Part shown: piece after piece, positions 1-51,681 of the stretch | Numbering within the stretch: the first letter of the stretch is position 1 | Layout: every line of letters starts with the position of its first letter | Virus record (IMG/VR): IMGVR_UViG_3300027973_000048 | Location: 10,067 to 74,066 of that record | DNA from: a virus | Length of the DNA: 64,000 bases | Direction: 5' to 3' (one strand) | Notes under the pieces: model-generated | Seen by the model: only the letters and a program-made list of their open reading frames with translations | Database searches by the model: none | Told to the model about the DNA's origin: nothing | Position numbers and translations under genes: made by a program

Positions 1-81
1 GGTAGCAAGGAATGGTTCCAACTATGGTTTAGTATGCCTTACCTCACAGGCGAACCGCCCGTTGGCAAGGGGATGAGATGA
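1..81 (+). CDS. C-terminal end of a hypothetical phage protein (5'-truncated by window)
   Basis: Frame 1 is open from base 1 (GSKEWFQLWFSMPYLTGEPPVGKGMR*); its TGA overlaps the next ATG (ATGA). Confidence 0.55.
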   Translation, partial: GSKEWFQLWFSMPYLTGEPPVGKGMR

Positions 82-452
82 AGATCAGAGAATTATTAGA
101 AGTTAGCCAAGGCAAAATCACCAAGAGGCAGCAAGAACCTACTAGAGGTTTGAGCACCTACAGTGATGTGGAAATGGCCAATAGCGACTATGTGGCATTT
201 AAATTAGGGCAGGCCATGGCAGGCACTGATGGCTCTAAAACTCCAGATATTGACGGCAAAAGTTGGTTCGGTAAAAAGAAAACTATTCATCCATACACTG
301 AAGTAGAAAATGAAATGTTTAAAAAAGCTGCCAAAGTGGTAGGCGCCAAATATACTGACCTTAACAAAGGTGATATGAAAAGTAAAGAATTACCTTCCAC
401 ACATACTGTCAGTCCTGTACACAAACATAAAAAGAACAAATACGGTGTATAA
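78..452 (+). CDS. Hypothetical basic protein, putative internal head protein
   Basis: 124 aa; N-terminus MKIRELLE is identical to that of the next gene and resembles a capsid-targeting leader. Confidence 0.7.
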   Translation: MKIRELLEVSQGKITKRQQEPTRGLSTYSDVEMANSDYVAFKLGQAMAGTDGSKTPDIDGKSWFGKKKTIHPYTEVENEMFKKAAKVVGAKYTDLNKGDMKSKELPSTHTVSPVHKHKKNKYGV

Positions 453-454
453 TT

Positions 455-637
455 ATGAAAATACGCGAATTACTTGAAACAGCCTCAGCAGGTGGAACTA
501 GCGCAGGCAATGTCACAGTAGGCCCAACTTATAAAAATAAAAAGGGCAAGACTTATAAAAACAAAGATGGCACAGTAAAAAATGCGCTGGATGTCAAAGG
601 AGCAAACCTTTTAACTGGCGGCAGCTTAAAACGATAA
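455..637 (+). CDS. Small basic protein, putative internal head protein
   Basis: 60 aa; MKIRELLE-TASAGGTSAG N-terminus; Lys-rich. Confidence 0.7.
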   Translation: MKIRELLETASAGGTSAGNVTVGPTYKNKKGKTYKNKDGTVKNALDVKGANLLTGGSLKR

Positions 638-640
638 ATA
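635..640 (+). promoter_or_regulatory. T4-type late promoter core (TAAATA)
   Basis: TAAATA followed by a GGAG RBS and ATG at 661; the same motif precedes many structural genes in this window. Confidence 0.55.
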
Positions 641-660
641 ACTTGAATACGGAGTAGAGA

Positions 661-1878
661 ATGGATATTAACATGCAATCACCTATGCCAGCACCTGAAC
701 AAGATGATGAAGGTAAAATGGCCAAAGCTGATCTATACAAAACAGCCAAATATAGCCTAAAACTATTTAAAATGATGCAAGACGATGCTCAACTAGAAGG
801 TTGGGTACAGGCTAAAATTACCAAAGCTGCTGACTATCTTGCCAGTGTATATCACTATTTAGAATACGAAATGAAGTTCACTGAATATGGTCGTGCCATT
901 GAAGACAGTGAAATGTACACTGAAAGCGAAAAGAAAATTCTAAAGAACAAACTACTTGAAGCTAAAGAAAAAGTTAAGGATCTGAAGAAAGCACAGGCTG
1001 AAAAACTCAAAGCTAAAGAAAAGAAAAAAGTAGATGAGAGTGAAGATGATCGTGGTGGTGACGATGATACTCCAAGCGACTTTAATAAAATAACAACTAG
1101 CAGTGGTCATACAAGACATAGTAGAAAAGCTAGTAGAACTAAAGCAGATCATGAACTAAAAGGCGATACCCCTATAACCAGTTTACATCCAGATCATGAT
1201 GAACGTGCTGCTAAATTCCTAGCCAAACAAGTTCATGGACGTAAAGTCAGTCCAATGGATCAATTGACCAAGCGTAAAGGCATGAGTGATCTAGACGAAG
1301 CCAAAGCTAAAAAAGCTAAGAAAGATTATGACGGCGACGGTGAAATTGAAAGTGGCAAAGACGAAGTGATTGGTAGTCGTCGTAAGGCTGCTGGATTGCC
1401 ATTTAAAGAAGGCGCTAAACCAGACTTCCTAGACATGGACAAAGATGGCAACAAAAAAGAACCAATGAAAAAAGCCGTTGCTAGCAAGAAAGTTAAAGAA
1501 GCTGCAATAAGCGGACCGAGTCAACCATCAGGGATTCCAGCAACTGCAAAAACTTCAGTGCCAGGAATGAGAGCCAATTCAGATGATTTGAAAAAGGCTA
1601 ATTCCAGTGCTGCATTAGGCGAGGGAAAATGTAATCATTCACCAAAAGGTAAAAGCTGCCCGGTACATGGTATGAAAGAATGTAGCGGCATGATGGAAGC
1701 CAAACCCAGTGCTGGTATGAGCAAAGGTGAAAAATCAGCTGTGGCTAAGAAAGCACAAGCTGGTAAAGACATTGGTAAACCAGGCAAAAGTTTTGACAAA
1801 GTAGCTAAGGCTGCTGGCGGTGGCGAAAAAGGTAAGAAAATTGCTGCCGCAGCTATGTGGAAAAACCAGGCCAAATAA
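661..1878 (+). CDS. Modular Lys-rich virion/head protein (putative polyprotein)
   Basis: 405 aa with a helical N-terminal domain, then short modules separated by VDE/LDE/FKE/VKE/LGE/MME; two DxDxDG motifs and a CNH...CPVH motif. Confidence 0.75.
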   Translation: MDINMQSPMPAPEQDDEGKMAKADLYKTAKYSLKLFKMMQDDAQLEGWVQAKITKAADYLASVYHYLEYEMKFTEYGRAIEDSEMYTESEKKILKNKLLEAKEKVKDLKKAQAEKLKAKEKKKVDESEDDRGGDDDTPSDFNKITTSSGHTRHSRKASRTKADHELKGDTPITSLHPDHDERAAKFLAKQVHGRKVSPMDQLTKRKGMSDLDEAKAKKAKKDYDGDGEIESGKDEVIGSRRKAAGLPFKEGAKPDFLDMDKDGNKKEPMKKAVASKKVKEAAISGPSQPSGIPATAKTSVPGMRANSDDLKKANSSAALGEGKCNHSPKGKSCPVHGMKECSGMMEAKPSAGMSKGEKSAVAKKAQAGKDIGKPGKSFDKVAKAAGGGEKGKKIAAAAMWKNQAK

Positions 1879-1879
1879 T

Positions 1880-2053
1880 ATGTCATTACCCAGCTATGTA
1901 GATGACTATGATGCATATTTGGCACTGAAATTAAATCAACCTAAGTGCCAAACTTGTAATTGTCCTAGACATTGTGAACATAGTTGTAATGATTGTAGTT
2001 ATTGCCCAGATTGTCATTGTAAGGAATGTGTAGAAGGTAAGGGAACAAACTAA
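1880..2053 (+). CDS. Small Cys/His-rich metallothionein-like protein
   Basis: ATG at 1880, one base after the upstream stop; 57 aa with 10 Cys and 3 His in CQTCNCPRHCEHSCNDCSYCPDCHCKEC. Confidence 0.65.
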   Translation: MSLPSYVDDYDAYLALKLNQPKCQTCNCPRHCEHSCNDCSYCPDCHCKECVEGKGTN

Positions 2054-4546
2054 ATGGACATGAAGAAATATATTACTCTTGTGGAAAGTGCTGCTAAACC
2101 CCTTGAGATTAAGGCTAAACCTGTTCAACCTAAAACAGAACCTGCACCACTAGTACATATTTCAGAAAGTTACGAATCTAGTGCGGCCATTAGAAAAATT
2201 GTTCGCAATATAATGGAGAAGAAAAATCCTCCACAACCACCTAAACAACGTAATCCTGTGGCTAAAAACGCCAATGCTGCTGTAGGGGGTGGTGCTGCTG
2301 GCAAACATAAAGACAAGAAAAAAGACGCCAAACAAGGTGTACAAAAGCATAAAGGTCAACAACTAGACGAGTATCTCGAAAGAGAAAAGCCCACTGACGG
2401 CGAATTATTATTGTTGATGAAAAAATATAGATTGGCAAAAATATCCGGCAAACCATTAGCCAGTGTGATGCGCCAGTCAGATATACATAAACTAATTGAT
2501 GCAGAAAAAGATGGTCGTATAGAAGCATTAAAATATAGAGATTCCATTGAGGAAGAACAATATGATAGCAAAGGCGAATTCAAACGTCGTGAACTAGAAC
2601 ATGAGCTAGGTCACGAAACTAGAAGTGGTTCCGTGTATATTGATGGCAAATATTGGAAAACATTTGACGATTATAAACAAGCACAAAATGTATCTAGAAG
2701 CTTGGAAAGAAAAGGCAAACGTGCCACAGTACGTATTCATGAATCAAAAAAACCAAAAAAGACTGCACAGGAAAAACTTAGTGCTGCCGTAGACAAAGAA
2801 CGTAAAAAAAATGAACCTGCTACACGTCGAGCCAAACAAGAATTAGACGCCATAATGCCTAGTTCAAAAAAGGCATCCCCAGTAAGCGAAAAAATGCGTA
2901 CTCCATTTGCTGGTGCTGCTGTTGGTCACAAAGAAGGCCCAGCTGGTCAATTAAAAGCCATGGATCCAAAAGGTTATCCCAAAGGTAAACTAGTCGGTGG
3001 TGCATTGGAAGAGGGTCGGGTATGTCCACAATGTGGCAGCAGCAAATGCAGTTGCCCGCCTGGTAAATGCAAATGTAAACCAGTAGCTGGATTCAAACCT
3101 AAAATGAAAGAGGATAAAGATCCTTGCTGGGACAACTACAAAATGGTAGGCACTAAAAAGAAAGGCAGCAAGACTGTGCCAAATTGTGTGCCAAAAGAAA
3201 GTAGAGTGGGTGAGGCACAGAATGCAGCTCAACAGGCTGCTATTGCTATTGCTAAAAAGAAAAAGAAAGGTGTGGCGGAAGGCGGCCCATTTAGTTATGG
3301 TAAACCCCCACGCAAAGGCTCAGTGGCTGATTTGGCCGCAAAGCGTCGTAAAGAACAGGATAGAAAAACTCCCCCCATTGAACCAAAAGACCAAATGGTT
3401 GGCAACGCTAAGGTCACGAAAAATACAAAGGAAGGCTTGAAGCAGATGCTACGTAAAGTCGATCCTACTATCAAATCAAGATTACGTAGAAAAGCGGATG
3501 ATCTTGATTATGAAGGTGATGAAGTACATCAAGATTTAAAATCTATGGGCATGGAGCCTCACGATGCTATGACTCGTAACATGGATCCTGAAAAATATTA
3601 TAGAAATGCAGATCGCTATCGTAGATTGGCCGACAAAGATGTAGATGAAACTCAACTGGATGAACTAGATCGTCCAAGTGGTAAACTATACATTATTATC
3701 ACCGCAGATAACGCTGGCGCTCCCCATGTGTTTGGCGACTTTGGATCATTCCCACAAGACGTCATGCACAAGATTGCCAAACGTGGCACTAGAGATAAAT
3801 CAGGTGCCAAAACTAAACTAAAGATTGATTTCTTGTTTGATGACTTTAGAACTACAATTCAACATTTAAGAACCATATTTAGAGACTTAGACTTTATTGG
3901 TGCAGAAGCAGCAGAATTTATTATTAAAAGTTCCGCCTTACGCAGTGACCAAGGTGAAGAAGTTAAACATCTAAGAGATTACATTCAAGCTGGCGATGAT
4001 CGTCGTATGAAAATGTATCAAGCACCTGAGGACGATGAAGAAGAAGGCGAGCCAACTGGTGGCAATATATTACGTATTGACCCTGAAACCGGTGCTGCAC
4101 GTAGAGTTGTTGGAGTAAAACCACAAACACAGATGGGCGGCCATGCTGTAGCACAACCAACTACTTTTAAATACACATTATTAAAAACTGAACTCATGCC
4201 CAAACTACGTGATATGGGATTCAAGTTCGATGGAAATCAAATCATATTAAGAGCAGATCAGAGAGACAAGTTAAAGAACATGTTAGGATCACAATTTCAA
4301 AGCGTATTTGGACAAAAAGGAATGTTTAAAGAAGGTGGCGAAAAATATAAAATTAAAACTACGGGCAGTGACATTAATCCAGCAACTGGTAAGAGAGCAG
4401 ATTATTACATCAGTCCAAATACAGGTAAAAAAGTTTATAAAAAAGCCAACGTAGGTGATCACGAAAGTCCTAACAGTGGCGAACACAAACCCAAAGTAGA
4501 AGGTCAGATTGCTCGGTCCATTATGGAAGAATTTGGATTGACATAG
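2054..4546 (+). CDS. Large modular virion/head protein (putative polyprotein)
   Basis: 830 aa; MDMKKYITLVES leader; a mosaic of short basic and Cys modules bounded by hydrophobic-x-Glu sites. Confidence 0.75.
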   Translation: MDMKKYITLVESAAKPLEIKAKPVQPKTEPAPLVHISESYESSAAIRKIVRNIMEKKNPPQPPKQRNPVAKNANAAVGGGAAGKHKDKKKDAKQGVQKHKGQQLDEYLEREKPTDGELLLLMKKYRLAKISGKPLASVMRQSDIHKLIDAEKDGRIEALKYRDSIEEEQYDSKGEFKRRELEHELGHETRSGSVYIDGKYWKTFDDYKQAQNVSRSLERKGKRATVRIHESKKPKKTAQEKLSAAVDKERKKNEPATRRAKQELDAIMPSSKKASPVSEKMRTPFAGAAVGHKEGPAGQLKAMDPKGYPKGKLVGGALEEGRVCPQCGSSKCSCPPGKCKCKPVAGFKPKMKEDKDPCWDNYKMVGTKKKGSKTVPNCVPKESRVGEAQNAAQQAAIAIAKKKKKGVAEGGPFSYGKPPRKGSVADLAAKRRKEQDRKTPPIEPKDQMVGNAKVTKNTKEGLKQMLRKVDPTIKSRLRRKADDLDYEGDEVHQDLKSMGMEPHDAMTRNMDPEKYYRNADRYRRLADKDVDETQLDELDRPSGKLYIIITADNAGAPHVFGDFGSFPQDVMHKIAKRGTRDKSGAKTKLKIDFLFDDFRTTIQHLRTIFRDLDFIGAEAAEFIIKSSALRSDQGEEVKHLRDYIQAGDDRRMKMYQAPEDDEEEGEPTGGNILRIDPETGAARRVVGVKPQTQMGGHAVAQPTTFKYTLLKTELMPKLRDMGFKFDGNQIILRADQRDKLKNMLGSQFQSVFGQKGMFKEGGEKYKIKTTGSDINPATGKRADYYISPNTGKKVYKKANVGDHESPNSGEHKPKVEGQIARSIMEEFGLT

Positions 4547-4555
4547 GAAAACATT

Positions 4556-5746
4556 ATGCAAGTAAAAGATATATTAGACAAATTACGCAGTTTGGAAGAA
4601 GCTGATGAAAAGGACTCCAAACGGAAAGTAGATCCAACGAACGGTGCAGGCGAGGGTGACCCATTTGCAACATCAGCGATCAATAGCACCCGTACCAAGC
4701 CAGTAACAGGATCAAGTGGTGATACACCTAAATTTAAACCAGATCCAACTGGGCTTGATGGAGCAGCTGGTGATATGCCTAAATTTAAACCAGATCCAAC
4801 TGGGCTTGATGGGGCTGCAGGGGATGCTGTTGCCGGGGGGGCCGCTGCTGGTAGTTTAGAAAAAGCTATTGATACAGTTTTAAAAGATCCATCCAATCCA
4901 GATGCTAAAAAAGTTCAAGATAAATTAAGTACATCACATGATCCTGAAATTCAAACATTGGTGATTTCTTTGGATGCAATTGATAGAGTTCTTCAAAAGA
5001 ACGGAATTAAAGTAGATACCATTGCTGAAACTGTATATCGTTATTATCGCGAGAATATCAACAATTTTCTTACACCACAAGAACAAATAAAAAATTGGTC
5101 CATGCTTTCCGAAGTTGATGGCAAACAACAATTAGATGAAACCCTTGCAGGTACGGCTGCTAGAATGGCAAGTAGACGTCTAGCTAGAAGAGCTGAAAGG
5201 CAAGCATTAAGAAGAGCTGAAAGAGCAGCGGCTAGAAATGCCATGTCAAGAGCAGCTAGATCCTCAACAAGAAGTCTACCAAGAACCGCAGCAACAAGAA
5301 GCGCTGTAGATGATACTCCTCTTTGGAAATCACCATGGGTAAGAGGCGGATTAGCCCTTGGCGGTGCAATAAGCTTGGCGCCAGCAGCCTTGGAACTTTG
5401 GGATTCGTTAAAAAAATTGTTTAGTAGTAAAAGTGAAGAAGATCCAGGCATGCCGCCCCCAATGTCACCACAAACAGGGCCAGGTCCTGAGGATCCTAAT
5501 AAACCTAAAGATTCAGACAATCCAAACGACCCTAAATCAAATAACCCTCAGGATCCTAATAGTCCCACTGATGACCCCGCTTCTGGAGATTCCAAAAATG
5601 ACATCAAAATTGTCATGAAACATTTTAAAATAGTATTACCATATTTTCAAGATGCTAAATTTCATTCATTACCTGAGGAAATACAAATACGTTTAACTAA
5701 GACATATGAGGGAATTCAGAAATTCATGGAAAAAGTAGGTAGCTAA
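4556..5746 (+). CDS. Putative internal/ejected virion protein with Arg/Ala-rich and hydrophobic segments
   Basis: 396 aa; MQVKDILDKLRSLEEA leader; 17-aa duplication; hydrophobic GLALGGAISLAPAAL; Pro/Asp/Asn linker. Confidence 0.7.
   Translation: MQVKDILDKLRSLEEADEKDSKRKVDPTNGAGEGDPFATSAINSTRTKPVTGSSGDTPKFKPDPTGLDGAAGDMPKFKPDPTGLDGAAGDAVAGGAAAGSLEKAIDTVLKDPSNPDAKKVQDKLSTSHDPEIQTLVISLDAIDRVLQKNGIKVDTIAETVYRYYRENINNFLTPQEQIKNWSMLSEVDGKQQLDETLAGTAARMASRRLARRAERQALRRAERAAARNAMSRAARSSTRSLPRTAATRSAVDDTPLWKSPWVRGGLALGGAISLAPAALELWDSLKKLFSSKSEEDPGMPPPMSPQTGPGPEDPNKPKDSDNPNDPKSNNPQDPNSPTDDPASGDSKNDIKIVMKHFKIVLPYFQDAKFHSLPEEIQIRLTKTYEGIQKFMEKVGS
4718..4825 (+). repeat. 51-bp in-frame tandem duplication (PKFKPDPTGLDGAAGD x2)
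   Basis: cctaaatttaaaccagatccaactgggcttgatgg occurs at 4727 and 4778. Confidence 0.9.
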
Positions 5747-5760
5747 AAGGCAAAGAAATC

Positions 5761-7362
5761 ATGGAAATAAAACTATTACTAGAAACATTAGATAGAATAG
5801 ATGAAGGATTAACACTCAAATCTGTCAAAGCAGCCGTAGAAATAGAACCTGATGCTGGTCGAAGAGCCATGATTCTAGCCAAATTAGCCGCAGAAAACAA
5901 CTTACCAGGTCTCTTTGATCCAACAGATGGCACATACTATAACGTCAACGGTGAAAAAGAAAGAAGTCCAGATAATGCAATTACTCAAAGATTAGGGTCT
6001 GTAGGCCTAGTACCTATGAATGCACAAACAAGTATGTTTGGCCTTTGGGGAGCAGACGATGTTAAACAAGGTGCCATATCACAAAGTTTTGATCTTAATT
6101 GGAATGCTGAAGTAGATGATAATATCAAACGTCTTAATGATCTAGTTAAACGAATTTCCGTAAATTTAAAAGAATCTAAAAAAAGAAAAAAATCAATATC
6201 AAACGCATTGTATGAAAGTTTCTTTGGTGAGGGTCCTAATGATGATTCAGGTATTATGGCACCCTATAGAGCAAAAGAACTAGCAAACTCGTCACCGCCG
6301 TTTCGGTTATCTGATCTTGGTAATGACACACAAGACCCTACTACAATAACTCCACCTTCTGGTGGGGGTGGTGGGGGTAATAAATTTGCCAAAGAAATTG
6401 AGGAGATGAATAAGATCATCGAAGTGCTAACTGCATTAAACGAAAAACGTCCAAATCAAGGCATAGTTGCTGCCATTGAAAGAGCACAGGATGTTATAAA
6501 AAGAGTAAATGCACAACCAGCTGAACCACCCATGCCACCCAGACCACCTAGACCAGATCCAAAGCCACCAGGAGGTATAGATTGGTCAGGTGTCACTGAA
6601 AAAGAACCATTAACATATAAACCACCAGAGCCAAAACCACCAGAGCCAACGCCTGCTGTTGATCCAAGAATTAAAAAAATCAAAAGAGCTCGAGAACTTC
6701 TTGATCAAATAAAAAAGGAACCACGACCTGGTCCAGTTAGTCCACAAGTTAATCCAGATAATCCACAACCAAGTCCTGGAGAAGATAAAAAATGGCCAAC
6801 AACTCCTGATGAAATTAAGGCTTTCCAAAACGGTAGAGATGATCCTCGTTCACCTGGCAAAAAACTAAATGTTGATGGTATAATTGGCACACATACTTAT
6901 CAAGCACTAATTGATGCTGGATATAAACCGCCTAACGATTTTAGAGTAACTGCATATAAACCAAAACCCAATAAAAGACCAGTTAGTCCGCAGGTAGCAC
7001 CAAATAAACCTGAACTGGCTCAAGTAGATATTAATGCTCAAATTGAAAAAGATAAAAATAATCCTCAAAATAAACCACCAGGAGATGGCGGAGTAGACCC
7101 ATATGTTTCCAACGGACAGACAACTGTTCCATTAAGTACCAATGTAGGTGACAATCCCGATTATCACGGCAATGTTAACCCCCAGGATAGTACAACAATT
7201 AAACCAACTAAAGGGCCTAATGGTGAGCCACTGATAAGAGATCCTAGAACAGGACAAATGGGCTACATGTCTAGACAAGGCAGAGGTCAAACATTTGTAC
7301 CAATTTCAGAAATGACTCAAGATGATAGAATACTTGACCAAATTAGAAGCATGAGAGTATAA
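5761..7362 (+). CDS. Pro-rich virion protein with peptidoglycan-binding-like domain
   Basis: 533 aa; EIKAFQ...LNVDGIIGTHTYQAL matches the PG_binding_1 pattern (DGxxGxxTxxAL). Confidence 0.7.
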   Translation: MEIKLLLETLDRIDEGLTLKSVKAAVEIEPDAGRRAMILAKLAAENNLPGLFDPTDGTYYNVNGEKERSPDNAITQRLGSVGLVPMNAQTSMFGLWGADDVKQGAISQSFDLNWNAEVDDNIKRLNDLVKRISVNLKESKKRKKSISNALYESFFGEGPNDDSGIMAPYRAKELANSSPPFRLSDLGNDTQDPTTITPPSGGGGGGNKFAKEIEEMNKIIEVLTALNEKRPNQGIVAAIERAQDVIKRVNAQPAEPPMPPRPPRPDPKPPGGIDWSGVTEKEPLTYKPPEPKPPEPTPAVDPRIKKIKRARELLDQIKKEPRPGPVSPQVNPDNPQPSPGEDKKWPTTPDEIKAFQNGRDDPRSPGKKLNVDGIIGTHTYQALIDAGYKPPNDFRVTAYKPKPNKRPVSPQVAPNKPELAQVDINAQIEKDKNNPQNKPPGDGGVDPYVSNGQTTVPLSTNVGDNPDYHGNVNPQDSTTIKPTKGPNGEPLIRDPRTGQMGYMSRQGRGQTFVPISEMTQDDRILDQIRSMRV

Positions 7363-7363
7363 C

Positions 7364-9301
7364 ATGAAAGATCCAATCCAAGAATCATTAAATAAAATTC
7401 GTCTAGTAGAATCACAACAGGTTGATGAATATAGTTGGGACGAATTCAAACAAGATGCAGGCGATGCAGGTCGTGGTGCCTGGCAAGGTGCAACTTTTGG
7501 ATTAGGCAATAAAATTGCTGCTGGTGCTAAATCAGCATTTGGCAAACAATCATATCAGGATTATTTGGATCAAGAAGAAAAAGCTGATGCTGCTGCTAAA
7601 GAACGTAGCCCTTGGCTTTATGGTACAGGCGAACTGGCTGGCGGAATTGGTGTTCCAGGAGCAGGACTTGCTGGCGTATTAGCTAGAAAGGGTGCTACAA
7701 AATTGGCTGGAAAAGCATTAGGAACTGGTGCTCGAGGTACTAAATGGGCAGAAAGAACTGGAAAAGCTGGCGAAACCGTAGCTAGCGATGCTGTTAATAA
7801 ATATGGCAGTGATGTTATCCAGCAAACAGGAAACAGTTTGCTTGATAAATTGGCTGTTCCAGCGGCCGTTGCAGGTGCTGCGGCAACTGGAGCAGTAGCT
7901 GCCAACACTGTGGGTTCAAGAAAACTAGATCCTGATCCCAAAGTTCAAGCATTACAAAACAAATTAATTGCCAAAGGTGCAACAATTAAAGCGGACGGTA
8001 TTATGGGACCAAAAACTCAAGCAGCTATGAAACAATATGGCATTACTATGGAATCAAAAAGTAGCTTAATGATGGAATTAATGGATATGGAGGAAGCTAG
8101 AGGTAGAGTTCGTCCAAACAGCCGATTCGACGATCCAAAATCTTTTAAAGGCGGAAGCGCTTCATCATCGGCACCAGCACCAGAACCAAAATCTGCTCCT
8201 GCTCCTGCTCCTGCTCCAGCACCAAAAAAACCTCGCTATACTGCTTCTGAGATTAATGCTCATAGCGCAGCAGGTGGAAAGTTTGATCCAGCGACAGGAG
8301 AGATGATTCCTCTTCCAAAAACTCCAGCTAATAATCGAGTTAGAAATAAAGAATTACAGCCAAGTGGGGGAGAATTATCTAGACAACAAAGAACAAGATC
8401 TAATTTAAACAGAGAACCAAGAACAACTACTCCCCCACCTGCAGAGCCATCAAGACTTGGTCAACTAGCAAAAAATACTGCCATAGGATTAGGCACAGCA
8501 GGAGCTACAGTCGCTGGCACTGCATTACTTGACAAATGGTTGAATAGCAAGTCAAACGACCCCGCAAATGATCCCGCTAATGGCGGTGGTTCAGCAGGCG
8601 GTGGTTCAGCAGGCGGTGGCGCTGGAGGAGGCGAAGGCGGAGTTGCTGGAGGGGGTGAAGGTGGTGGTGCCGGCGGTGGTACATCCAAAGGCGGCGGTGG
8701 CGGAGCTGGTGGCGAAGGCGGTGGCATCAGCACACAAACTGGTCCAGGAGGAAATAGCAGCGGTGACGAAGGAGAACCAATGAGACCTACTGGGAATAGA
8801 GCTTTATGGATGCGTAATGAATTAAAAGATCTAATGAAAGAAATTTCTACATATAACGACATACCTGAAGCAGTAGCTTTAAATAAAGAATATCAGGAAT
8901 TTATAAAATCAGATGTTGGACCTACACCTGGACCTGGACCTACACCTGGACCTACACCTGGACCTACACCTGGACCTACACCTGGACCAAGACCTAGACC
9001 AGAACCAAGACCAGAACCAAGACCAGAACCAAGACCAGAACCAAGACCAGAACCAACACCTGGACCTACACCTGGACCTGTTGCTCCGCAATCAGACGAA
9101 TGGTCATGGCAGGATGCTGGCAAATCAACTAAAGATGCTTTAAAAGCTGCTGGAAATGCTGCTTGGCAAGGGGCAAAAACTTTTGGTCATAATGTTGCAG
9201 ATTTTGGAAGAGGATTCATGAAAGAGGGCGAGGAAAATGGACTAAGAGAAGATCCTGAACTCACAGCTATTATTCATAATGCAGGATTGAATCGTAAATA
9301 G
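7364..9301 (+). CDS. Gly/Ala/Pro-rich virion protein with peptidoglycan-binding domain
   Basis: 645 aa; VQALQNKLIAKGATIKADGIMGPKTQAAM (PG_binding_1 pattern); GATFG and glycine-zipper-like helices; poly-Gly and PT/PR repeats. Confidence 0.75.
   Translation: MKDPIQESLNKIRLVESQQVDEYSWDEFKQDAGDAGRGAWQGATFGLGNKIAAGAKSAFGKQSYQDYLDQEEKADAAAKERSPWLYGTGELAGGIGVPGAGLAGVLARKGATKLAGKALGTGARGTKWAERTGKAGETVASDAVNKYGSDVIQQTGNSLLDKLAVPAAVAGAAATGAVAANTVGSRKLDPDPKVQALQNKLIAKGATIKADGIMGPKTQAAMKQYGITMESKSSLMMELMDMEEARGRVRPNSRFDDPKSFKGGSASSSAPAPEPKSAPAPAPAPAPKKPRYTASEINAHSAAGGKFDPATGEMIPLPKTPANNRVRNKELQPSGGELSRQQRTRSNLNREPRTTTPPPAEPSRLGQLAKNTAIGLGTAGATVAGTALLDKWLNSKSNDPANDPANGGGSAGGGSAGGGAGGGEGGVAGGGEGGGAGGGTSKGGGGGAGGEGGGISTQTGPGGNSSGDEGEPMRPTGNRALWMRNELKDLMKEISTYNDIPEAVALNKEYQEFIKSDVGPTPGPGPTPGPTPGPTPGPTPGPRPRPEPRPEPRPEPRPEPRPEPTPGPTPGPVAPQSDEWSWQDAGKSTKDALKAAGNAAWQGAKTFGHNVADFGRGFMKEGEENGLREDPELTAIIHNAGLNRK
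8918..9079 (+). repeat. 12-bp coding tandem repeats (GPTP)n and (RPEP)n
   Basis: Units ggacctacacct and ccagaaccaaga are visible in tandem. Confidence 0.9.
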
Positions 9302-9637
9302 TTATTGACTGTGCCAATAGCCTTGGAAACAATGGCGCAACTCATGGCCTAAGTTATGCATACTGGCATATTTGGCTGTGACAATTACACACTTGTTTCC
9401 GTCTTGAGTACCACAAGCTTTGATATTGGTATTGGTAATAGGCCCATAACCTCGAGCCACATTCAATTTGCTACAATAGTCACTTACATCATCTACCGCA
9501 CGCCACTCTACTTGAACAACATTGTAATTCCGTTTGGTGGCATCAAACTTAGCAGTGGGGTTATCCCACTCAAAATAATCAGCAGCCTGAGCTGTTACCG
9601 AATGTGCCAAAAATACTGCAAGGACAAGCTTTTTCAT
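9302..9637 (-). CDS. Small exported protein with HExxH motif (putative Zn-metallopeptidase fold)
   Basis: Signal peptide MKKLVLAVFLAHSVTAQA; C-terminal GHELRHC; 4 Cys; own consensus promoter. Confidence 0.65.
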   Translation of the reverse strand: MKKLVLAVFLAHSVTAQAADYFEWDNPTAKFDATKRNYNVVQVEWRAVDDVSDYCSKLNVARGYGPITNTNIKACGTQDGNKCVIVTAKYASMHNLGHELRHCFQGYWHSQ

Positions 9638-9756: not shown

Positions 9757-10014
9757 ATGTCAAGTAGAATGTACGGTCCAGAAGAAAAGGCCAAATTGGA
9801 AAAACTCATCAACGAAGGATCCACTGTACTACGTGAAATTGAAGACCTTCAAGAGGGTCTCAAGGAAACAGTTAAAGCAGTGGCCGAAGAACTCAATGTC
9901 AAAACCAGCGTGATCAATCGTGCTATCAAGATTGCACACAAAGGTGATTGGAGTGCCCATGACAGTGATTGGAAGGAAGTGGAAGCAATTCTAGACATTA
10001 CCAAAAAAATCTAA
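9757..10014 (+). CDS. dsDNA-binding protein (T4 DsbA/GapR-like)
   Basis: 85 aa coiled-coil with EIEDLQEGLKETVKAVAEELNVKTSVINRAIK pattern; sits before DNA polymerase. Confidence 0.55.
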   Translation: MSSRMYGPEEKAKLEKLINEGSTVLREIEDLQEGLKETVKAVAEELNVKTSVINRAIKIAHKGDWSAHDSDWKEVEAILDITKKI

Positions 10015-10241
10015 TGTCCAAAATCAAAGACTCTATTATTGAATGGACGTTGACTGCACTACTGATTATTGGCGTGGCATTGACCAGTTTTAATGTCTAT
10101 CCATTAAATTTATGGGTGTGTTTAGCCGGCAATATTGGATGGATATATCTAGCATGGTGTTGGCGTAAATGGAGTTTATTTGTAGTGCAATTGATAATCA
10201 CTGTCATTTACATTTTAGGCATAAGTAAAGTATACTTGTAA
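10014..10241 (+). CDS. Small multi-pass membrane protein
   Basis: ATG overlaps the upstream TAA; 75 aa with about 3 hydrophobic segments. Confidence 0.7.
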   Translation: MSKIKDSIIEWTLTALLIIGVALTSFNVYPLNLWVCLAGNIGWIYLAWCWRKWSLFVVQLIITVIYILGISKVYL

Positions 10242-10245
10242 GGCA

Positions 10246-10292
10246 AGCAGGCCATAATCTGCTCAATCGGTATTTGTCTGCCACAAAAGACA
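10246..10292 (+). promoter_or_regulatory. Twin RNA hairpins in DNA polymerase leader (candidate translational operator)
   Basis: AGCAG-GCCATAAT-CTGCT and TGTCT-GCCACAAA-AGACA, the second ending just before the AGGAGAG RBS. Confidence 0.55.
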
Positions 10293-10303
10293 TAGGAGAG
10301 TTT

Positions 10304-40036: not shown

Positions 40037-42349
40037 TTATGCAGTCAATCCTGCCAATTTCTTAAGATCTGCTATCATTGTCATAGCTTGATCAGGGGTT
40101 GTTGGCTTCATTTTAGACAATGCTGTTTTAAGATCCGGCGTAGTGCCTGCTCTTGTAGGCGATACTGAAGGCATAGAAGTTCCAGATGATCCTGCTCCTG
40201 GCATACTAGGCATATTCATACCTTTCATCATGTCACCAAACTTGCCCTGTATACCTTTATACATACCACCTACGGGATCACTACCACTGGCATCAAGGCC
40301 CATACTACCGGCCATACCTTTGAATTTGCCTATAGCATCATCATAACTGGCAGGTTGGCCGTTTATGGTGCCACTGCTAGTATTAGTAGTTTTCATATTA
40401 GCAGCTGGGATCTTACTTTGTATATTCTGCATCATACCTTGTGGATCCATTCCGCCCATCATGCCTTTCATCATACCGCCCACATCAGATATACCAGCTT
40501 CCATAATACCAGCCATTCTTCTCATGTCTGATAACTCTCTTGAATGACTATGGCGCTGCTTGTATTTTTCCATGATGTTATTACAAGCTCTTTCCACCAT
40601 GTGGTCAAATCTATCCGCTTTATGAGTGCCCGGGGGAACATGATATTTTTCTTTGAGTTCCTTACACATCTTTGTGACAAACCCTTCTTCACCTATAGTA
40701 AAGGTTCCCTCAGTTTGATTAAAGAATCCACTAATACGACTACGAATTTCATCAACTAACTTATGTCCAGTACCACTTTCAGCAAGTGGGGCAGGATTTG
40801 GAATCATTGGTCCTGGGGCTGCTCCTGGAGGCGCTGCTTCAGGCGGTGGTGCTGGAGGGGCTGCTGCTTCAGGAGGTGGTGCTGGAGGGGCTGCTGCTTC
40901 AGGAGGTGGTGCTGGGGGGGCTGCTGCTTCAGGGGGAGTAACAGGGGGAGTAACAGGGGGAGTAACAGGGGGAGTTACTGATGTGCCATCAAACCCCAAT
41001 TTACTACTTAAATCTGTGCCATTTTCTCTATCATGCGACTTTAAATATGACGCGATAATTGGTCTAGCATCCATTTCATCTAAACCCAAATCTGCTAGTA
41101 TCTGAAACGCACGATTTAATTTATTATTATCTATAATACCTTTTATACTATCTCTAACATTATCCCCATCTGTGCCTAATGGTAATTCATTACCAAATAA
41201 ATTCTTTAATTCAGCCATGGCCTGCTGTTGTAATTCCTCATTGTCATCAAATAAATCATCATCTTCTTTGACTATTTGATCTAGATAACTTTCAAAAGCA
41301 CTTAATTCTTTAATTTTTTTGTTTTTTAACTTTAAATCTTTTTTATCATCATTGGTTTTTAACATGTCCTCTTCTGTGTCAATCTCTTTAACAGGCAACT
41401 GTGATTCATCAACTAATTTATAGATATAAGGAAATGCTGTTTTTAATTCTTCATTGAAACTACGCACAGTTAATCTATCAATCCAATCATTGAGTACTTC
41501 CTCGGGCACATCCTGTGATTGATTTACTCTAAAATTCTCTTTAAAAACACTATAGTTTTTAGACATCTGTAATGAATGCACTTGTTTTTTGATGTCATTA
41601 ATACGTTCAATTACTTTTTGTTGAATATTGCCCATGCTTTCACTAACTACAGGGCTACGATCTACATAATTCTTAAAAAATCTTAGTTTACTTAATTCTT
41701 CACTAAGTCCAATAACATGACGACCAATATCATCATATGGTGTACCACCATGACTTACGTGCTGGGCCAAAGCTCTTGCACCATTTAAATGCTTGACTGG
41801 GTATAAAAATCTTTCACCCATTGCATTTTCTACATAAATGTTCTCAATACGTTGAGATCTTCCGTTCATGGAGTTTAAATTAACAGGTTGACTGTGTCTT
41901 ACTATAATTTTAGCCTCACCTATTTCTTGATAACTGGTCTTACTAGTACCAAATAGTTTTGATTCATTCATATCATTTTCCCCTAAGGAATCTCTTTTAT
42001 CCAAATTAGTTTGTGAAGGATTTTGTGCATTAAAATTTAATCCATGTGTTTGAGCAAATTTAGGCAATATATTTCTAATAAACCTATCCCATGACCTGTT
42101 ATTCACTGTATCACTCCACTGCACATCTAAACCAGGATCTTCACCTTCTTCTGATAGGCTAATAGTAACATTTACTACTTTTTCACCTTCTTCATTGGTA
42201 AAATCAAAGTTAAACTTTCTTGCATCAGCATCTTTTAAATTAACGCCGTCAATAGGTTTGTCGTCCGCAGTGGATTTTTTAAGGCTGGGAAACCTTGTTT
42301 GCAATTGTCTACCCAAATCTTTGGCTATTTGTTGGAAATTCGCACTCAT
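40037..42349 (-). CDS. Large head-associated hypothetical protein
   Basis: 770 aa downstream of TerL with a late promoter, many x-x-E sites, Pro repeats and a Met/Gly-rich tail. Confidence 0.75.
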   Translation of the reverse strand: MSANFQQIAKDLGRQLQTRFPSLKKSTADDKPIDGVNLKDADARKFNFDFTNEEGEKVVNVTISLSEEGEDPGLDVQWSDTVNNRSWDRFIRNILPKFAQTHGLNFNAQNPSQTNLDKRDSLGENDMNESKLFGTSKTSYQEIGEAKIIVRHSQPVNLNSMNGRSQRIENIYVENAMGERFLYPVKHLNGARALAQHVSHGGTPYDDIGRHVIGLSEELSKLRFFKNYVDRSPVVSESMGNIQQKVIERINDIKKQVHSLQMSKNYSVFKENFRVNQSQDVPEEVLNDWIDRLTVRSFNEELKTAFPYIYKLVDESQLPVKEIDTEEDMLKTNDDKKDLKLKNKKIKELSAFESYLDQIVKEDDDLFDDNEELQQQAMAELKNLFGNELPLGTDGDNVRDSIKGIIDNNKLNRAFQILADLGLDEMDARPIIASYLKSHDRENGTDLSSKLGFDGTSVTPPVTPPVTPPVTPPEAAAPPAPPPEAAAPPAPPPEAAAPPAPPPEAAPPGAAPGPMIPNPAPLAESGTGHKLVDEIRSRISGFFNQTEGTFTIGEEGFVTKMCKELKEKYHVPPGTHKADRFDHMVERACNNIMEKYKQRHSHSRELSDMRRMAGIMEAGISDVGGMMKGMMGGMDPQGMMQNIQSKIPAANMKTTNTSSGTINGQPASYDDAIGKFKGMAGSMGLDASGSDPVGGMYKGIQGKFGDMMKGMNMPSMPGAGSSGTSMPSVSPTRAGTTPDLKTALSKMKPTTPDQAMTMIADLKKLAGLTA
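40833..40978 (-). repeat. Coding repeats (VTPP)x4 and (PPEAAAPPAP)x3
   Basis: 12-bp and 30-bp tandem units are visible. Confidence 0.9.
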
Positions 42350-42360: not shown

Positions 42361-43944
42361 TTAGAAACTGCTGGAAATGAATATAGGTAAAGGTGCTTCA
42401 AAATCCTCTTCTACGTGTACACCACTAAGACTTTCAAACACCCTTGGATCCCAATCAGCCACTAAAGTACTCATTCTAACCATCAATAACAAGGCACTTA
42501 CCAAGTCATCATGATCACCGGTCTTTGCTTTGAAGGTAAAACCAGCTGCAATAAAACTCTTTAGCTCACTGATCAAGCTTTTACTATTAATTTCCATCTG
42601 ACCTGTTTCAATTAAATGCTTTAATCTAGCACAAGCCGATATTTTACTACTATGTGTAGTGTTAAATCCTTTACGAAACTTACGCACATGCCCTTTGCGT
42701 ATGGGTTCTGAAACCATTAACCCGCTAAATTGCTCTTCACCTAGGTCTTTGATCACTACTAAACCTGCTTCGCCCACAGTATTGTTTTCTATACTCCAGT
42801 AAATGTTATTAGATGCACCGCCCATTTCATCACTGAGATATTTAAGTATGTCTTTTAGAATTTTAATCTGCCCTTGAATAGGGGTAGTATTATGATGCCA
42901 CTCTGCTACCTGTTTAAATGTGGGCAATTCAAACACTTCTATAGCACTATAGTTTCCACCTGTACCTAAACTAGGATCTAAACTGACTAGATATATGTTA
43001 TCTGAATTTAATCTACTATACCACCTAGTTTGACCCATTTTAAACAAAGGATCCCTGCCAGTTAATTCACTCAATCTAATACTATTAACTAATGTTTCAT
43101 CATAGATCAAAAATTCGCAGCCGTATTCACGACGGAATCGTTCTTCACCAATTCTACTTTGCTCTTGTGCGGCCCAAGCATCGTCTCTATCTGGGTGTTC
43201 ATCCCAAGTACAAGTAAAAGGAAAAAATCCATTAGCACCTAATTCTTGCTCATTACCATACTCGTCATAGTTATTATTAGCTTCTTTCCATATTGTAGCA
43301 AATGTGTCTTCGTCACTGTTAGGTGTACTGGTAATAATAGCGCGACCACCAGTGGCCAATGTAGGTGATATTGACGTCCAAAATTCATCAGCAATATTTG
43401 GCATCACAAAAGCAAACTCATCGCAATATAATAAGGATATACTCATACCACGACCAGTATTGCCTGTAGTTGTAGCAGATACAATACGTGATCCATTGTC
43501 AAATTCTATACTACCTTTATTATAATTGATCACACCAGATCGAATATAGTCAGGACAAAGCTCATATGCATAACGAATACGCTGCATAATCTCCTGCGAA
43601 CCAGTATATTTGTGGGCAGCAATTAGAATAGTTTGGTCTGGATGAAACATTGCATACCAGAGTAAGTACCCACTCGCACAGGTGGTCTTGCCCATCTGTC
43701 TAGGCAACATGTTTACAGTAAATCTATGATTATGATATGCGTGTAGAAGTCTTACTTGGTAATCAAAAGGTTCAAATAATAACTTGCCTTTGACCGGATG
43801 TTGAATATAAAAGAAATTAGTGCAAAAATGCAAGTATCCAACTTCAGGATCACTGCATTTTAAGAGATTTTCTACCTGCTGTTCGGTATACTTTTCTTTC
43901 TTATAGGCTTTCTTAGTAAGTACACCATCCAGAGACTTGGACAT
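42361..43944 (-). CDS. terL: Terminase large subunit (gp17-like)
   Basis: PRQMGKTT Walker A, LLYCDEFAF Walker B, ITSTPN; nuclease LDPSLG...HDDLV. Confidence 0.96.
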   Translation of the reverse strand: MSKSLDGVLTKKAYKKEKYTEQQVENLLKCSDPEVGYLHFCTNFFYIQHPVKGKLLFEPFDYQVRLLHAYHNHRFTVNMLPRQMGKTTCASGYLLWYAMFHPDQTILIAAHKYTGSQEIMQRIRYAYELCPDYIRSGVINYNKGSIEFDNGSRIVSATTTGNTGRGMSISLLYCDEFAFVMPNIADEFWTSISPTLATGGRAIITSTPNSDEDTFATIWKEANNNYDEYGNEQELGANGFFPFTCTWDEHPDRDDAWAAQEQSRIGEERFRREYGCEFLIYDETLVNSIRLSELTGRDPLFKMGQTRWYSRLNSDNIYLVSLDPSLGTGGNYSAIEVFELPTFKQVAEWHHNTTPIQGQIKILKDILKYLSDEMGGASNNIYWSIENNTVGEAGLVVIKDLGEEQFSGLMVSEPIRKGHVRKFRKGFNTTHSSKISACARLKHLIETGQMEINSKSLISELKSFIAAGFTFKAKTGDHDDLVSALLLMVRMSTLVADWDPRVFESLSGVHVEEDFEAPLPIFISSSF

Positions 43945-44534
43945 TATCTTCCTTTAACTTCGGTATACAGATTTTTTAACTTATATTTTAAAGTTTCGTG
44001 CATGGGCATACTCATTGGGTTGTCGCCTCCACGATAGTTATGTTTAAATGACTGTTTAGGTTTGTTTAAATCATCACCACTTGGCACTGCTGCTGCCATA
44101 CCAGCATATTCTTCATCGGGACTGTTAGAATATTCATCTAATTCTAGTTCTAATTCACCCGCATCATTCTCGTCATGATCTATTTCATGTCCCATGCCAT
44201 GCATGTCATGACCCATATCATCCATGTCATGACCCATATCATGCTCAGGCTCTGAAACTGCAACTACTGCACCTGCTGGACTACTAATTGCATCATCTGG
44301 AGCATCGTCGCCATGACCTTTTAACACATTCAACAAGTCACGAATGCCTTCTGGTCCTGTAGCATTCATACTAACATTCATTGTAATAGGAGGATGGCCA
44401 GCACCACTCATCATGCCCATTCCACCGATTGACGGCATAATACCACACTCTTGAACAGTTTGATTGGATTCTTTTAAAATCTGTTTGTTTTGATCTAAAT
44501 CTGTTATAGTTTGTAATAGTTTTTTGAAATCCAT
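43944..44534 (-). CDS. Acidic His/Met-rich putative head/scaffold protein
   Basis: MDFKKLLQTITDLD..ILKES leader; HDMGHDMDDMGHDMHGMGH. Confidence 0.7.
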   Translation of the reverse strand: MDFKKLLQTITDLDQNKQILKESNQTVQECGIMPSIGGMGMMSGAGHPPITMNVSMNATGPEGIRDLLNVLKGHGDDAPDDAISSPAGAVVAVSEPEHDMGHDMDDMGHDMHGMGHEIDHDENDAGELELELDEYSNSPDEEYAGMAAAVPSGDDLNKPKQSFKHNYRGGDNPMSMPMHETLKYKLKNLYTEVKGR

Positions 44535-45136
44535 TATTCTGTCCTGTTGATTGAACTTAACACACTCTTTAAGAATTGTGATTGTTCCATGTTATGTGCT
44601 TTTTCTGTAGGAGCACTCTTGGCTAATAATTGATCATTAACACCTTTATATTGCTCACCTCTATGGCGGTCTTTACCTAAACTTTTTATAAAACTTAACT
44701 TAGCCTTTTCACCTGCCACTGCTTGATTGTTTACCTTTTCATAAGGTTTATTTAAAATAGCTTCACTTTTAGTGCCTACTCTACTATAACTATCAATATT
44801 ATATTCTATTTCTTCTTGCTCTTTTAATGTTCTAACTTTTAAATGAACGGGATTAATTTTTAATTTTTCTGACAAATAAATTGCTAACTCGTGACTGGTC
44901 ACTGGATACCCACAAGTAACATCATACAAATTAACTTGTATGTTTCTAAGCTCGGGAAAATCCATTGGGGTCTCAGCAATAGGTGTTCTCATTGTTTTAG
45001 TTACAGTGGTGCATTCAAACTTTGAAAGAGCAGTTTTCATATTCTCTTCAATTTTATCGTCAACGTCACCGGCAATTTTAACCTTAAATTCGTAGGTTTT
45101 AATGCTTTCTATTAGGTATTCCTTAAATATGCTCAT
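44534..45136 (-). CDS. Putative head protein
   Basis: N-terminus MSIFKEYLIES resembles the T4 capsid-targeting sequence; TAAATA upstream at 45160-45155. Confidence 0.7.
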   Translation of the reverse strand: MSIFKEYLIESIKTYEFKVKIAGDVDDKIEENMKTALSKFECTTVTKTMRTPIAETPMDFPELRNIQVNLYDVTCGYPVTSHELAIYLSEKLKINPVHLKVRTLKEQEEIEYNIDSYSRVGTKSEAILNKPYEKVNNQAVAGEKAKLSFIKSLGKDRHRGEQYKGVNDQLLAKSAPTEKAHNMEQSQFLKSVLSSINRTE

Positions 45137-47530: not shown

Positions 47531-47538
47531 TATTTATA
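47531..47538 (-). promoter_or_regulatory. T4 late promoter TATAAATA
   Basis: Exact TATAAATA 6 nt before the ATG of 47524. Confidence 0.7.
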
Positions 47539-51673: not shown

Positions 51674-51681
51674 TATTTATA
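51674..51681 (-). promoter_or_regulatory. T4 late promoter TATAAATA for sheath
   Basis: Exact motif upstream of the AGGAGA RBS. Confidence 0.7.

Follow-up and report, generated by a model that had tools for sequence, protein, structure and literature searches.

Gene row at the start of the window

The stretch of DNA analysed here, referred to as the window, comprises 64,000 nucleotides (positions 10,067 to 74,066) of IMG/VR virus record IMGVR_UViG_3300027973_000048 and is the final 64 kb of a 74-kb virus contig. Its source is an uncultured freshwater jumbo T4-type phage. The large terminase shows 55% identity to TerL of Pseudomonas phage PA5oct (287 kb), the window encodes sheath, tube, neck and head-closure proteins of the T4-superfamily kind, and gp32-, UvsX- and UvsY-like proteins are encoded as well; because of these matches the virus is assigned to the T4 superfamily of myoviruses. 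A family-B DNA polymerase gene lies at 10274-12970, and DNA of this phage is also found in freshwater metagenomes from several studies; no RNA run was listed among the public runs that contain it. Our subject is a tight, same-strand row of genes (78-452, 455-637, 661-1878, 1880-2053, 2054-4546, 4556-5746, 5761-7362 and 7364-9301) with intergenic gaps of 0-23 bases, which an earlier note had read as encoding polyproteins that are packaged in the capsid and cut into many peptides after the Glu of [ILVMF]-x-E sites. A raised dot below marks the position that follows the Glu of such a site.

On the contig, the row extends upstream of the window by three or four genes, at least three of which are leader-bearing. 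One encodes a Pol-beta-type nucleotidyltransferase fused to a ligase-like part, and another an HxGH nucleotidyltransferase fused to a kinase-like part. The row is flanked by chaperone-type genes (DnaJ, deformylase, ClpB-like) and by replication genes, and it stands outside the structural block. At L024:2166-5776, directly upstream of the leader-bearing row, lie a DnaJ-like gene, a peptide deformylase-like gene and a gene for a 758-residue ClpA/ClpB-type double AAA+ chaperone. Searches of the target proteins against Pfam and PHROGs returned no informative family; megablast of the first 12 kb against the phage collection and tblastn with 7364-9301 each found no match.

The genes of the row, all on the plus strand, begin with two small basic products that share the leader MKIRELLE, in copies that differ by synonymous codons. 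The first product has 124 residues (78..452), with its leader at nt 78-101 ending in LLE·V; its orthologue in the relative L009 begins MRAREFLAE·K, close to T4 MKTYQEFIAE·A. The second has 60 residues (455..637), carries a charge of +8 after the leader, and continues from the leader into TASAGGTSAGNV; after its site it resembles ...HLAE·SATAGATSAGNI in the capsid protein of another relative, G001. A 405-residue basic modular protein follows (661..1878, pI 9.4), with nine [ILVMF]xE sites. Its cassettes include PDFLDMDKDGNKKEPMKKA (nt 1411-1500), one without counterpart in some relatives (nt 1501-1623), and a tail cassette of charge +11 (nt 1699-1875). Between this gene and the second modular gene lies a leaderless Cys-rich microprotein of 57 residues (1880..2053), metallothionein-like with its Cys/His clusters, which is kept in the relatives L001 and L003.

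The second modular gene (2054..4546) encodes a basic protein of 830 residues (pI 9.6) with 16 sites. It opens with the leader MDMKKYITLVE·S (2054-2086). Further along come a cassette at 2891-3013, a Cys-rich module at 3014-3112, the module CW...VPNCVP (the CW module, residues 354-387) at 3113-3214, a helix with oligo-Lys at 3215-3280, and a module beginning GGPFSYG at 3281-3649, whose first 50 or so residues are invariant among close relatives. A conserved folded domain of 228 residues (residues 533-760; 3650..4333, plus strand) is bracketed by VDE·TQLDE·L and FKE·G, and the C-terminal module (4334-4543) ends in the tail ...SIMEEFGLT.

The three large proteins downstream differ in style, with Gly/Ala-rich hydrophobic stretches, Pro-rich linkers and weak peptidoglycan-binding-like parts. 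The first, of 396 residues (4556..5746), has the leader MQVKDILDKLRSLEE·A, two copies of the repeat PKFKPDPTGLDGAAGD, an Arg-rich helix, a hydrophobic Gly/Ala segment and a Pro/Asn/Asp-rich linker; it is counted in for its leader and its position in the row, the site argument being weak there. The second, of 533 residues (5761..7362), begins MEIKLLLE·TLDRIDE·G, has an N-terminal domain and Pro-rich linkers, and ends in the tail ...RILDQIRSMRV. Around its residues 345-395 we judged a stretch by eye to be peptidoglycan-binding-like, for which Pfam gave no match. The third, of 645 residues (7364..9301), has a leader ending in KIRLVE·S, Gly/Ala-rich hydrophobic stretches and poly-Gly; its residues 191-225 match PG_binding_1 (PF01471) at 20.4 bits (E 5.8e-4), below the cut-off of 23. 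It closes with PGPT and PEPR repeats, then FMKE·G and the tail ...AIIHNAGLNRK. The repeats are long and Pro-rich, (PGPT)n followed by (PEPR)n at 8893-9123, and this low-complexity DNA has open reading frames in several frames on both strands. As a guess, these three proteins may be envelope-active ejection proteins.

Site enrichment and module borders

All of the junctions quoted in the earlier note are present: VDE·S, LDE·A, FKE·G, VKE·A, LGE·G and MME·A in 661-1878, and LVE·S, ISE·S, LDE·Y, IHE·S, VSE·K, LEE·G-RVCPQC, MKE·D-KDPCW, VGE·A-QNAAQQ, VAE·G, VDE·T and FKE·G in 2054-4546. For enrichment, counts were compared with shuffles of each protein's own residues. The motif [ILVMF]xE[AGSD] occurs 26 times in the five large proteins where 11.0 are expected (z 4.6, ratio 2.35), and the narrower [IL]xE[AGS] 14 times where 4.7 are expected (ratio 3.0); the corresponding ratios in 55 other open reading frames of the window are 1.14 and 1.04. 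For control motifs the five large proteins show no enrichment, whether Asp, Lys or Gln stands at P1, the order is reversed, the spacing is changed or the form is [AGS]xE. The main sources of the signal are 661-1878 (7 against 1.9) and 2054-4546 (8 against 3.6), where it is clear. It is modest in 7364-9301 (6 against 2.5) and likewise in 5761-7362, which has eight [IL]xE against 3.8 expected. The earlier note had seen similar sites in other genes too; they are borne out in 40037-42349, where plain [ILVMF]xE is clearly enriched (24 against 12.4, p<0.001), and to the modest degree given above in 5761-7362 and 7364-9301, but not in 4556-5746 or 43944-44534.

The sites coincide with the borders of modules. 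We aligned homologues of the 830-residue and 405-residue proteins from syntenic relatives in IMG/VR (L001-L009), and found that indels in close relatives begin and end at Glu sites, as the note had supposed. Among 16 indels of at least six residues, eight left borders and nine right borders lie within two residues of a site (expected, 1.6 and 1.4), a total matched by none of 2000 random placements. Examples are an indel after LDE·, KKKKKDVAE·[106 residues]VKE·GGPFSYG, NTKE·[72 residues]VDE·T, VKE·[77 residues]MGE·T and FKE·[30 residues]VKE·A. The aligner's offsets of one to two residues stem from the identical x-E at the two ends of an insert. The homologue of the 405-residue protein in L002 lacks exactly the piece FKE·...VKE·, and in L003 and one contig of run X3 residues 283-321 of that protein are missing, in frame. 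In two metagenome studies, contigs have a version of the 830-residue gene that lacks exactly the piece 280-320 (cassette 2891-3013) and stays in frame; at its new junction SLTE·G replaces LEE·G, so that a different tripeptide, LTE, restores the joint. Four other metagenome joints (824>1762, 1325>1406, 1452>3262 and 4137>4400) were set aside for their short sides or unknown inserts; they are likely to come from other organisms or repeats.

The same pattern extends over the wider family. A large protein database holds 59 homologues of residues 533-760, in proteins of 460-1282 residues. One of them belongs to a bin named Polynucleobacter, and two, P0027 and P0020, are encoded on large contigs of 352 kb and 166 kb. 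The neighbours upstream of the 228-residue domain in these homologues fall into 17 classes, of which 12 end exactly in [ILVMF]xE and two more in x-x-E; the downstream neighbours, of about 13 classes, all follow F-x-E. Where local similarity within the family breaks off, the end falls exactly at a site in 45 cases (expected, 9.6). The order of modules varies, the PTDGELLLLMKKYR module being N-terminal here and placed after the domain in P0028, P0034 and P0039. Three family members (P0040, P0041 and P0043) have an HxGH nucleotidyltransferase with a MRLRQLFE-type leader fused ahead of the 228-residue domain in a single chain, so that genes of the row are joined in some phages and separate in others. 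Inside the domain itself the motif is avoided, with no occurrence against 2.9 expected here and none in 38 of 57 homologues. We considered DNA microhomology as the cause of site-to-site indels and rejected it: positions P3 and P2 vary between joints and only the Glu codon is common to them, which therefore indicates selection on the protein rather than recombination at a DNA repeat. The part of the note that described cassette arrays, with modules gained and lost between relatives, is confirmed by the relatives, the family and the metagenome alleles, with breakpoints at the Glu sites. Since modules are added, deleted and reordered at the joints, with a joint kept at each new junction, the arrangement fits release as separate pieces.

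Cutting at all sites would yield 61 pieces with a median length of 25 residues, and many of the predicted modules are 20-60 residues long. Those of the 405-residue and 830-residue proteins are mostly basic (+3 to +11), with two Cys-rich pieces and one folded domain of 223 residues. The library of basic and metal-binding peptides that the note had proposed can be kept as basic for most predicted pieces of 661-1878 and 2054-4546, and as Cys-rich for two. The AF2 model of the 228-residue domain has a mean pLDDT of 71, and a Foldseek search of it against the PDB returned nothing at E <= 0.001. A wide VIA-align comparison gave a best Z of 5.2, for an RNase-H-like or ASKHA-like topology over residues 8-129, too weak to assign a function.

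Several modules recur far outside this phage. The CW module is present in 24 phage records, including cyanophages and Melnitz, and also in Halorubrum tailed viruses; a literature search on it found no paper. Mosaic ORF219 of S-CREM1 carries several shared modules. The PDFLDMDKDGN module reaches high summed contig depth in freshwater metagenomes. The 20-residue module PDFLDMDKDGNKKEPMKKA (1411-1500) is common to very many unrelated freshwater metagenome contigs. In run X5 the summed contig depth is about 600 at nt 1446-1461 and below 20 in most bins of the stretch, and loose contig ends cluster at nt 1414-1417 and 1475-1482, just inside the FKE· joint.

Leaders, tails and the head protease

Otherwise unrelated proteins of the row have short leaders in common: MKIRELLE (twice), MKIFELF, MFLRELF...LLE·G, MRLRQLFE, MEIKLLLE, MQVKDILDKL and MDMKKYITLVE. 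The motifs at their ends (LLE·, LFE·, LVE·, LEE·) match the prohead-protease motif L/I-x-E, and a site falls within the first 16 residues in 10 of 12 row genes, compared with 23 of 78 other genes (p 6e-4). In the T4 record, ipII and ipIII start MKTYQEFIAE·A, gp22 starts MLKEQLIAE·A, and gp23 is cut at ...FLTE·A. The leader in the window is two residues shorter than T4 MKTYQEFIAE, a stretch too short for statistics; orthologue leaders include, besides MRAREFLAE of L009, MKTFSELMNE of L012. The upstream gene whose leader is MRLRQLFE·N, with the HxGH motif, is homologous to cyanophage cytidyltransferases, a class found in virions.

At the other end of the proteins, the tails ...AIMKEFGLK, ...AMLRIAGLR and ...AIIHNAGLNRK are similar to those of two proteins of a relative, its scaffold-position protein (...DIRKLAGLK) and its protease (...LLQIIKGLK). 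A motif, [DE]-L-K-K-L-A-G-[IL], occurs at the N-terminus of a 76-residue protein, MNLDELKKLAGINE, at window 1-81 (contig 9917-10147), and at the C-terminus of a 770-residue protein (...DLKKLAGLTA; 40037-40075, minus strand); the end of the relative's scaffold-position protein (L021:12410-12460) is of this type. The motif may be a docking peptide.

In T4, the protease gp21 cuts after Glu in L/I-x-E, and leaders of 10-19 residues that direct the internal proteins to the core are removed by it (PMC9026906; PMC3012670). Most mature T4 virion proteins lose just a propeptide, and gp22, gp67 and gp68 are cut by gp21 into several fragments that are mostly expelled (PMC9026906). The relative G001, which encodes a 75%-identical homologue of the 830-residue protein, has genes for a portal, a Peptidase_S77 protease, a scaffold-position protein and a capsid protein in T4 order. 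The protease, encoded at L021:10730-11359, is of the gp21 type (PF03420, E 1.2e-27; phrog_207). The scaffold-position protein starts MDAFKQLVE·SG, and the capsid protein reads ...HLAE·SATAGATSAG where T4 gp23 is cut.

A precedent for packaging comes from S-CREM2, a T4-like cyanophage (Synechococcus phage S-CREM2, OR473000; our records L029 and L025). Mass spectrometry of its CsCl-purified virions detected gp6, gp12-15, the cytidylyltransferase gp154, gp155, gp156 and gp160 (PMC10665884, Table 3). Its authors drew no link to a targeting leader or to protease sites (PMC10665884). By our reading of the proteins, gp154 starts MKNFSSFLTE·A, gp6 (a SAM hydrolase) MKDFDSFLE·E, gp13 MKDLHSFLTE·Q and gp14 (a kinase) (M)KRFDAFLTE·E. 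They share MK-x-[FL]-x-x-F-L-(x)-E, very close to T4 MKTYQEFIAE, and gp160 is a mosaic with a CW module between LEE· and ISE·. Among the undetected neighbours, most have no site near the start and none has the MK-x-F-x-x-F-L-x-E leader (gp159 begins MNFSE·, gp5 MNE·). These data are the best available support for packaging; they come from a distant relative and bear on packaging, not on internal cuts.

Probable head cargo and alternative explanations

We hold, with moderate confidence, that the row at 78-9301, together with the leader-bearing genes upstream, would encode head cargo that is loaded into the prohead and cut by the prohead protease. Of the earlier reading, the cassette arrays stand as observed; for prohead entry and cutting by the prohead protease the case is indirect, and the leaders, the protease of G001, the mimicry of cleavage sites and the virions of S-CREM2 all point that way. 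During building of the prohead, a short amphipathic leader of the T4 capsid-targeting type would bring each protein into the scaffolding core. A gp21-type prohead protease would then remove the leader and also cut the hydrophobic-x-Glu joints between modules. One gene would in this way give several small products, mostly basic peptides, with two Cys-rich pieces and a few folded domains, which would remain beside the packaged DNA or accompany it out of the head on infection. That the basic pieces bind DNA is the simplest guess.

A number of points weigh against this interpretation. For this phage and its close relatives, packaging and cutting are read from sequence. The class ILVMF was picked post hoc and is wider than the T4 rule, which has Leu or Ile at P3, a choice that the control motifs and the independent homologue tests answer only in part. 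Some joints are T-K-E or R-A-E, and in more distant relatives the enrichment is 1.63-fold against 1.24 in controls. The motif is unenriched in 4556-5746 (1 against 1.4) and likewise in 43944-44534, and weak in 5761-7362. Unrelated genes, too, have a site close to the N-terminus in 29% of cases, and the tail similarity is suggestive but unspecific, the regular expression for tails also matching the sheath and a fibre protein. The contig of 74 kb carries no gene for portal, prohead protease, scaffold or capsid, and the protease is known only from the relative. The authors of the S-CREM2 study caution that abundant proteins may co-purify with virions (PMC10665884). Finally, the T4-type late promoter TATAAATA is absent ahead of the row. 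It is also absent ahead of the head genes of G001, and the timing of expression therefore cannot be read from it.

The alternative that survives best, which we nevertheless think unlikely, accepts packaging and restricts cutting to the leader. The internal joints would then mark the linkers of multi-domain proteins that remain intact or almost so, like T4 Alt, which is trimmed only at its ends. Such an outcome would agree with the habit of mature T4 virion proteins, most of which lose just a propeptide, and with 4556-9301, where sites are sparse and mostly near the ends; moreover, leaders and the virion mass spectrometry speak to packaging and not to internal cuts. Against it, the order of modules changes freely, and every new junction retains a site, each time with another tripeptide; the folded domain avoids the motif internally, and the many modules of 20-60 residues are unlikely to be domains of one fold. 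By the T4 rule, cutting is to be expected wherever an L/I-x-E lies exposed in a disordered linker and active protease is present in the prohead.

It is more improbable still that the proteins are not head cargo at all, that the motif belongs to flexible linkers or serves another protease or partner, and that the proteins work inside the host during infection, perhaps as disordered factors of host takeover or DNA binding. The position of the row between chaperone-type and replication genes, outside the structural block, would suit this, as would the missing late promoter, the lack of any Pfam or solved-structure match, and the occurrence of the CW module in Halorubrum tailed viruses. The position argument loses force with T4, where the internal-protein genes ipII and ipIII likewise lie outside the head cluster, at 65-66 kb in the T4 record. 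Furthermore, the leaders resemble the T4 targeting sequence and the start of the relative's scaffold-position protein, S-CREM2 proteins with like leaders, one of them with a shared module, were detected in purified virions, and the motif fits the sole protease specificity known for this phage superfamily. Least probable of all, and to be given very little credence, is that the proteins are sacrificial core or filler that builds or sizes the prohead core, is chopped, and leaves as pieces without further function: most of T4 gp22, gp67 and gp68 is indeed expelled after cutting at many sites, and likeness to the row is seen in the relative, at the N-terminus (leaders) of its scaffold-position protein and in the C-terminal tails of that protein and of the protease, but the CW module is conserved nearly residue for residue across distant phages (24 records), the PDFLDMDKDGN module is abundant in freshwater metagenomes by summed contig depth, and 50 residues of the GGPFSYG module are invariant in close relatives, a degree of conservation in short modules that is hard to reconcile with mere filler. 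The predicted products also share their basic character with the T4 internal proteins that are retained.

Beyond the head-cargo interpretation of this one row, we put forward only tentatively, and with more doubt than belief, that T4-superfamily phages of fresh and salt water share a plug-in cargo system, in which a leader and hydrophobic-x-Glu joints would serve for loading, release and delivery with the DNA. The same doubtful proposal, taken as a whole, would make CW...VPNCVP, PDFLDMDKDGNKKEPMKKA, GGPFSYG... and the Cys-rich pieces an undescribed class of capsid-borne peptides traded between unrelated phages, and the conserved C-terminal tails a second docking signal common to the cargo, the scaffold-position protein and the protease. 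Should the reading be right, the few proteins that T4 is known to inject would be far outnumbered by the proteins and peptides that T4-type phages deliver, and a leader with protease joints would be a simple route to add new cargo. The rule would allow injected proteins to be predicted from sequence alone for uncultured phages in their thousands, would account for the recurrence of 'non-structural' enzymes in cyanophage virion proteomes, would put a name to very widespread small peptide modules of unstudied function, and could serve to fill phage heads with cargo of choice.

Relation to known systems

The system proposed here would be a variation on that of the T4 internal proteins and gp21; we found no literature description of shuffled cargo polyproteins with protease joints. 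Like IPI, IPII, IPIII and Alt of T4, with their capsid-targeting sequence cut by gp21, the proteins of the row have a short leader that is placed on unrelated proteins and ends in hydrophobic-x-Glu. Both sets are basic, both form a variable set of genes outside the head cluster, and the protease family is the same in the relative G001. The T4 internal proteins, however, are single small proteins trimmed once (Alt at both ends), whereas genes here have up to 16 joints with swappable modules and are fused to enzymes in some relatives; the leader here is shorter and not identical, and the T4-like behaviour is deduced from the protein sequences. The core proteins gp22, gp67 and gp68 of T4 undergo several L/I-x-E cuts per polypeptide inside the prohead, as predicted here, and the start of gp22 parallels the internal-protein leader just as MDAFKQLVE·S of G001 parallels MDMKKYITLVE·S of the window. 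Expelled T4 core peptides are acidic. The T4 core fragments are mostly expelled and are not a conserved exchangeable set, whereas the proteins here are basic, mosaic and variable in length (460-1282 residues in one family).

Many proteins inside the heads of phiKZ, 201phi2-1 and SPN3US are cleaved behind the Glu of a short motif, in some cases at more than one site, and leave the head together with the DNA on ejection (PMC9026906). The likeness to the inner-body and ejection proteins of these phages is post-Glu cutting by gp21-related proteases, and the difference is the motif, S/A/G-x-E. That motif was tried for the proteins of the row and rejected ([AGS]xE, 43 against 47.3, ratio 0.91; [AGS]xE[AGSD], 11 against 16.2). 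No homology was found between the phiKZ-type proteins and those here, and we found no literature description of cassette shuffling at sites for phiKZ-type giant phages. Closer in content are the virion-associated non-structural proteins of cyanophages (those of S-CREM2, and the NMNAT-like proteins of S-CBWM1, S-SZBM1 and S-SCSM1), with a homologous nucleotidyltransferase, like leaders and the CW module in gp160, although the S-CREM2 family is only distantly related to this phage. With viral polyproteins cut by a virus-encoded protease there is a shared logic of units separated by a short protease motif; the comparison is one of logic alone, since here the virus is a double-stranded DNA phage, cutting would take place inside the prohead, and modules are freely exchanged.

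Other features of the window

Two loci far from the row had also been named in the note. A gene for a 770-residue protein rich in [ILVMF]xE (40037..42349, minus strand) adjoins the large terminase gene; the protein ends in ...IADLKKLAGLTA, and its residues 130-324 are homologous to a PA5oct 'virion structural protein' encoded beside TerL (E 2e-22). At 43944..45136, also on the minus strand, two small genes with leader-like starts lie between a weakly TerS-like gene and TerL. Their products begin MDFKKLLQTITDLDQNKQILKE·S, the product being acidic and His-rich, and MSIFKE·YLIE·S. Sites show no enrichment in these two genes, and their link to the cargo finding is weak.

In the window as a whole the TATAAATA octamer occurs less often than shuffling predicts (3 against 7.8). 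Only two genes have it ahead of them, as exact boxes at 47531-47538 (minus strand), 7 bases upstream of a tube-like gene, and at 51674-51681 (minus strand), 31 bases upstream of the sheath gene. Directly beyond the row, 9302-9637 on the minus strand encodes a 111-residue protein with a signal-peptide-like start, MKKLVLAVFLAHSVTAQA, and an HELRH motif of the HExxH type close to its C-terminus. Judged by these motifs, it may be a small secreted metallopeptidase-like protein. L001, L003, L004 and L008 each retain it in this position, again on the opposite strand.

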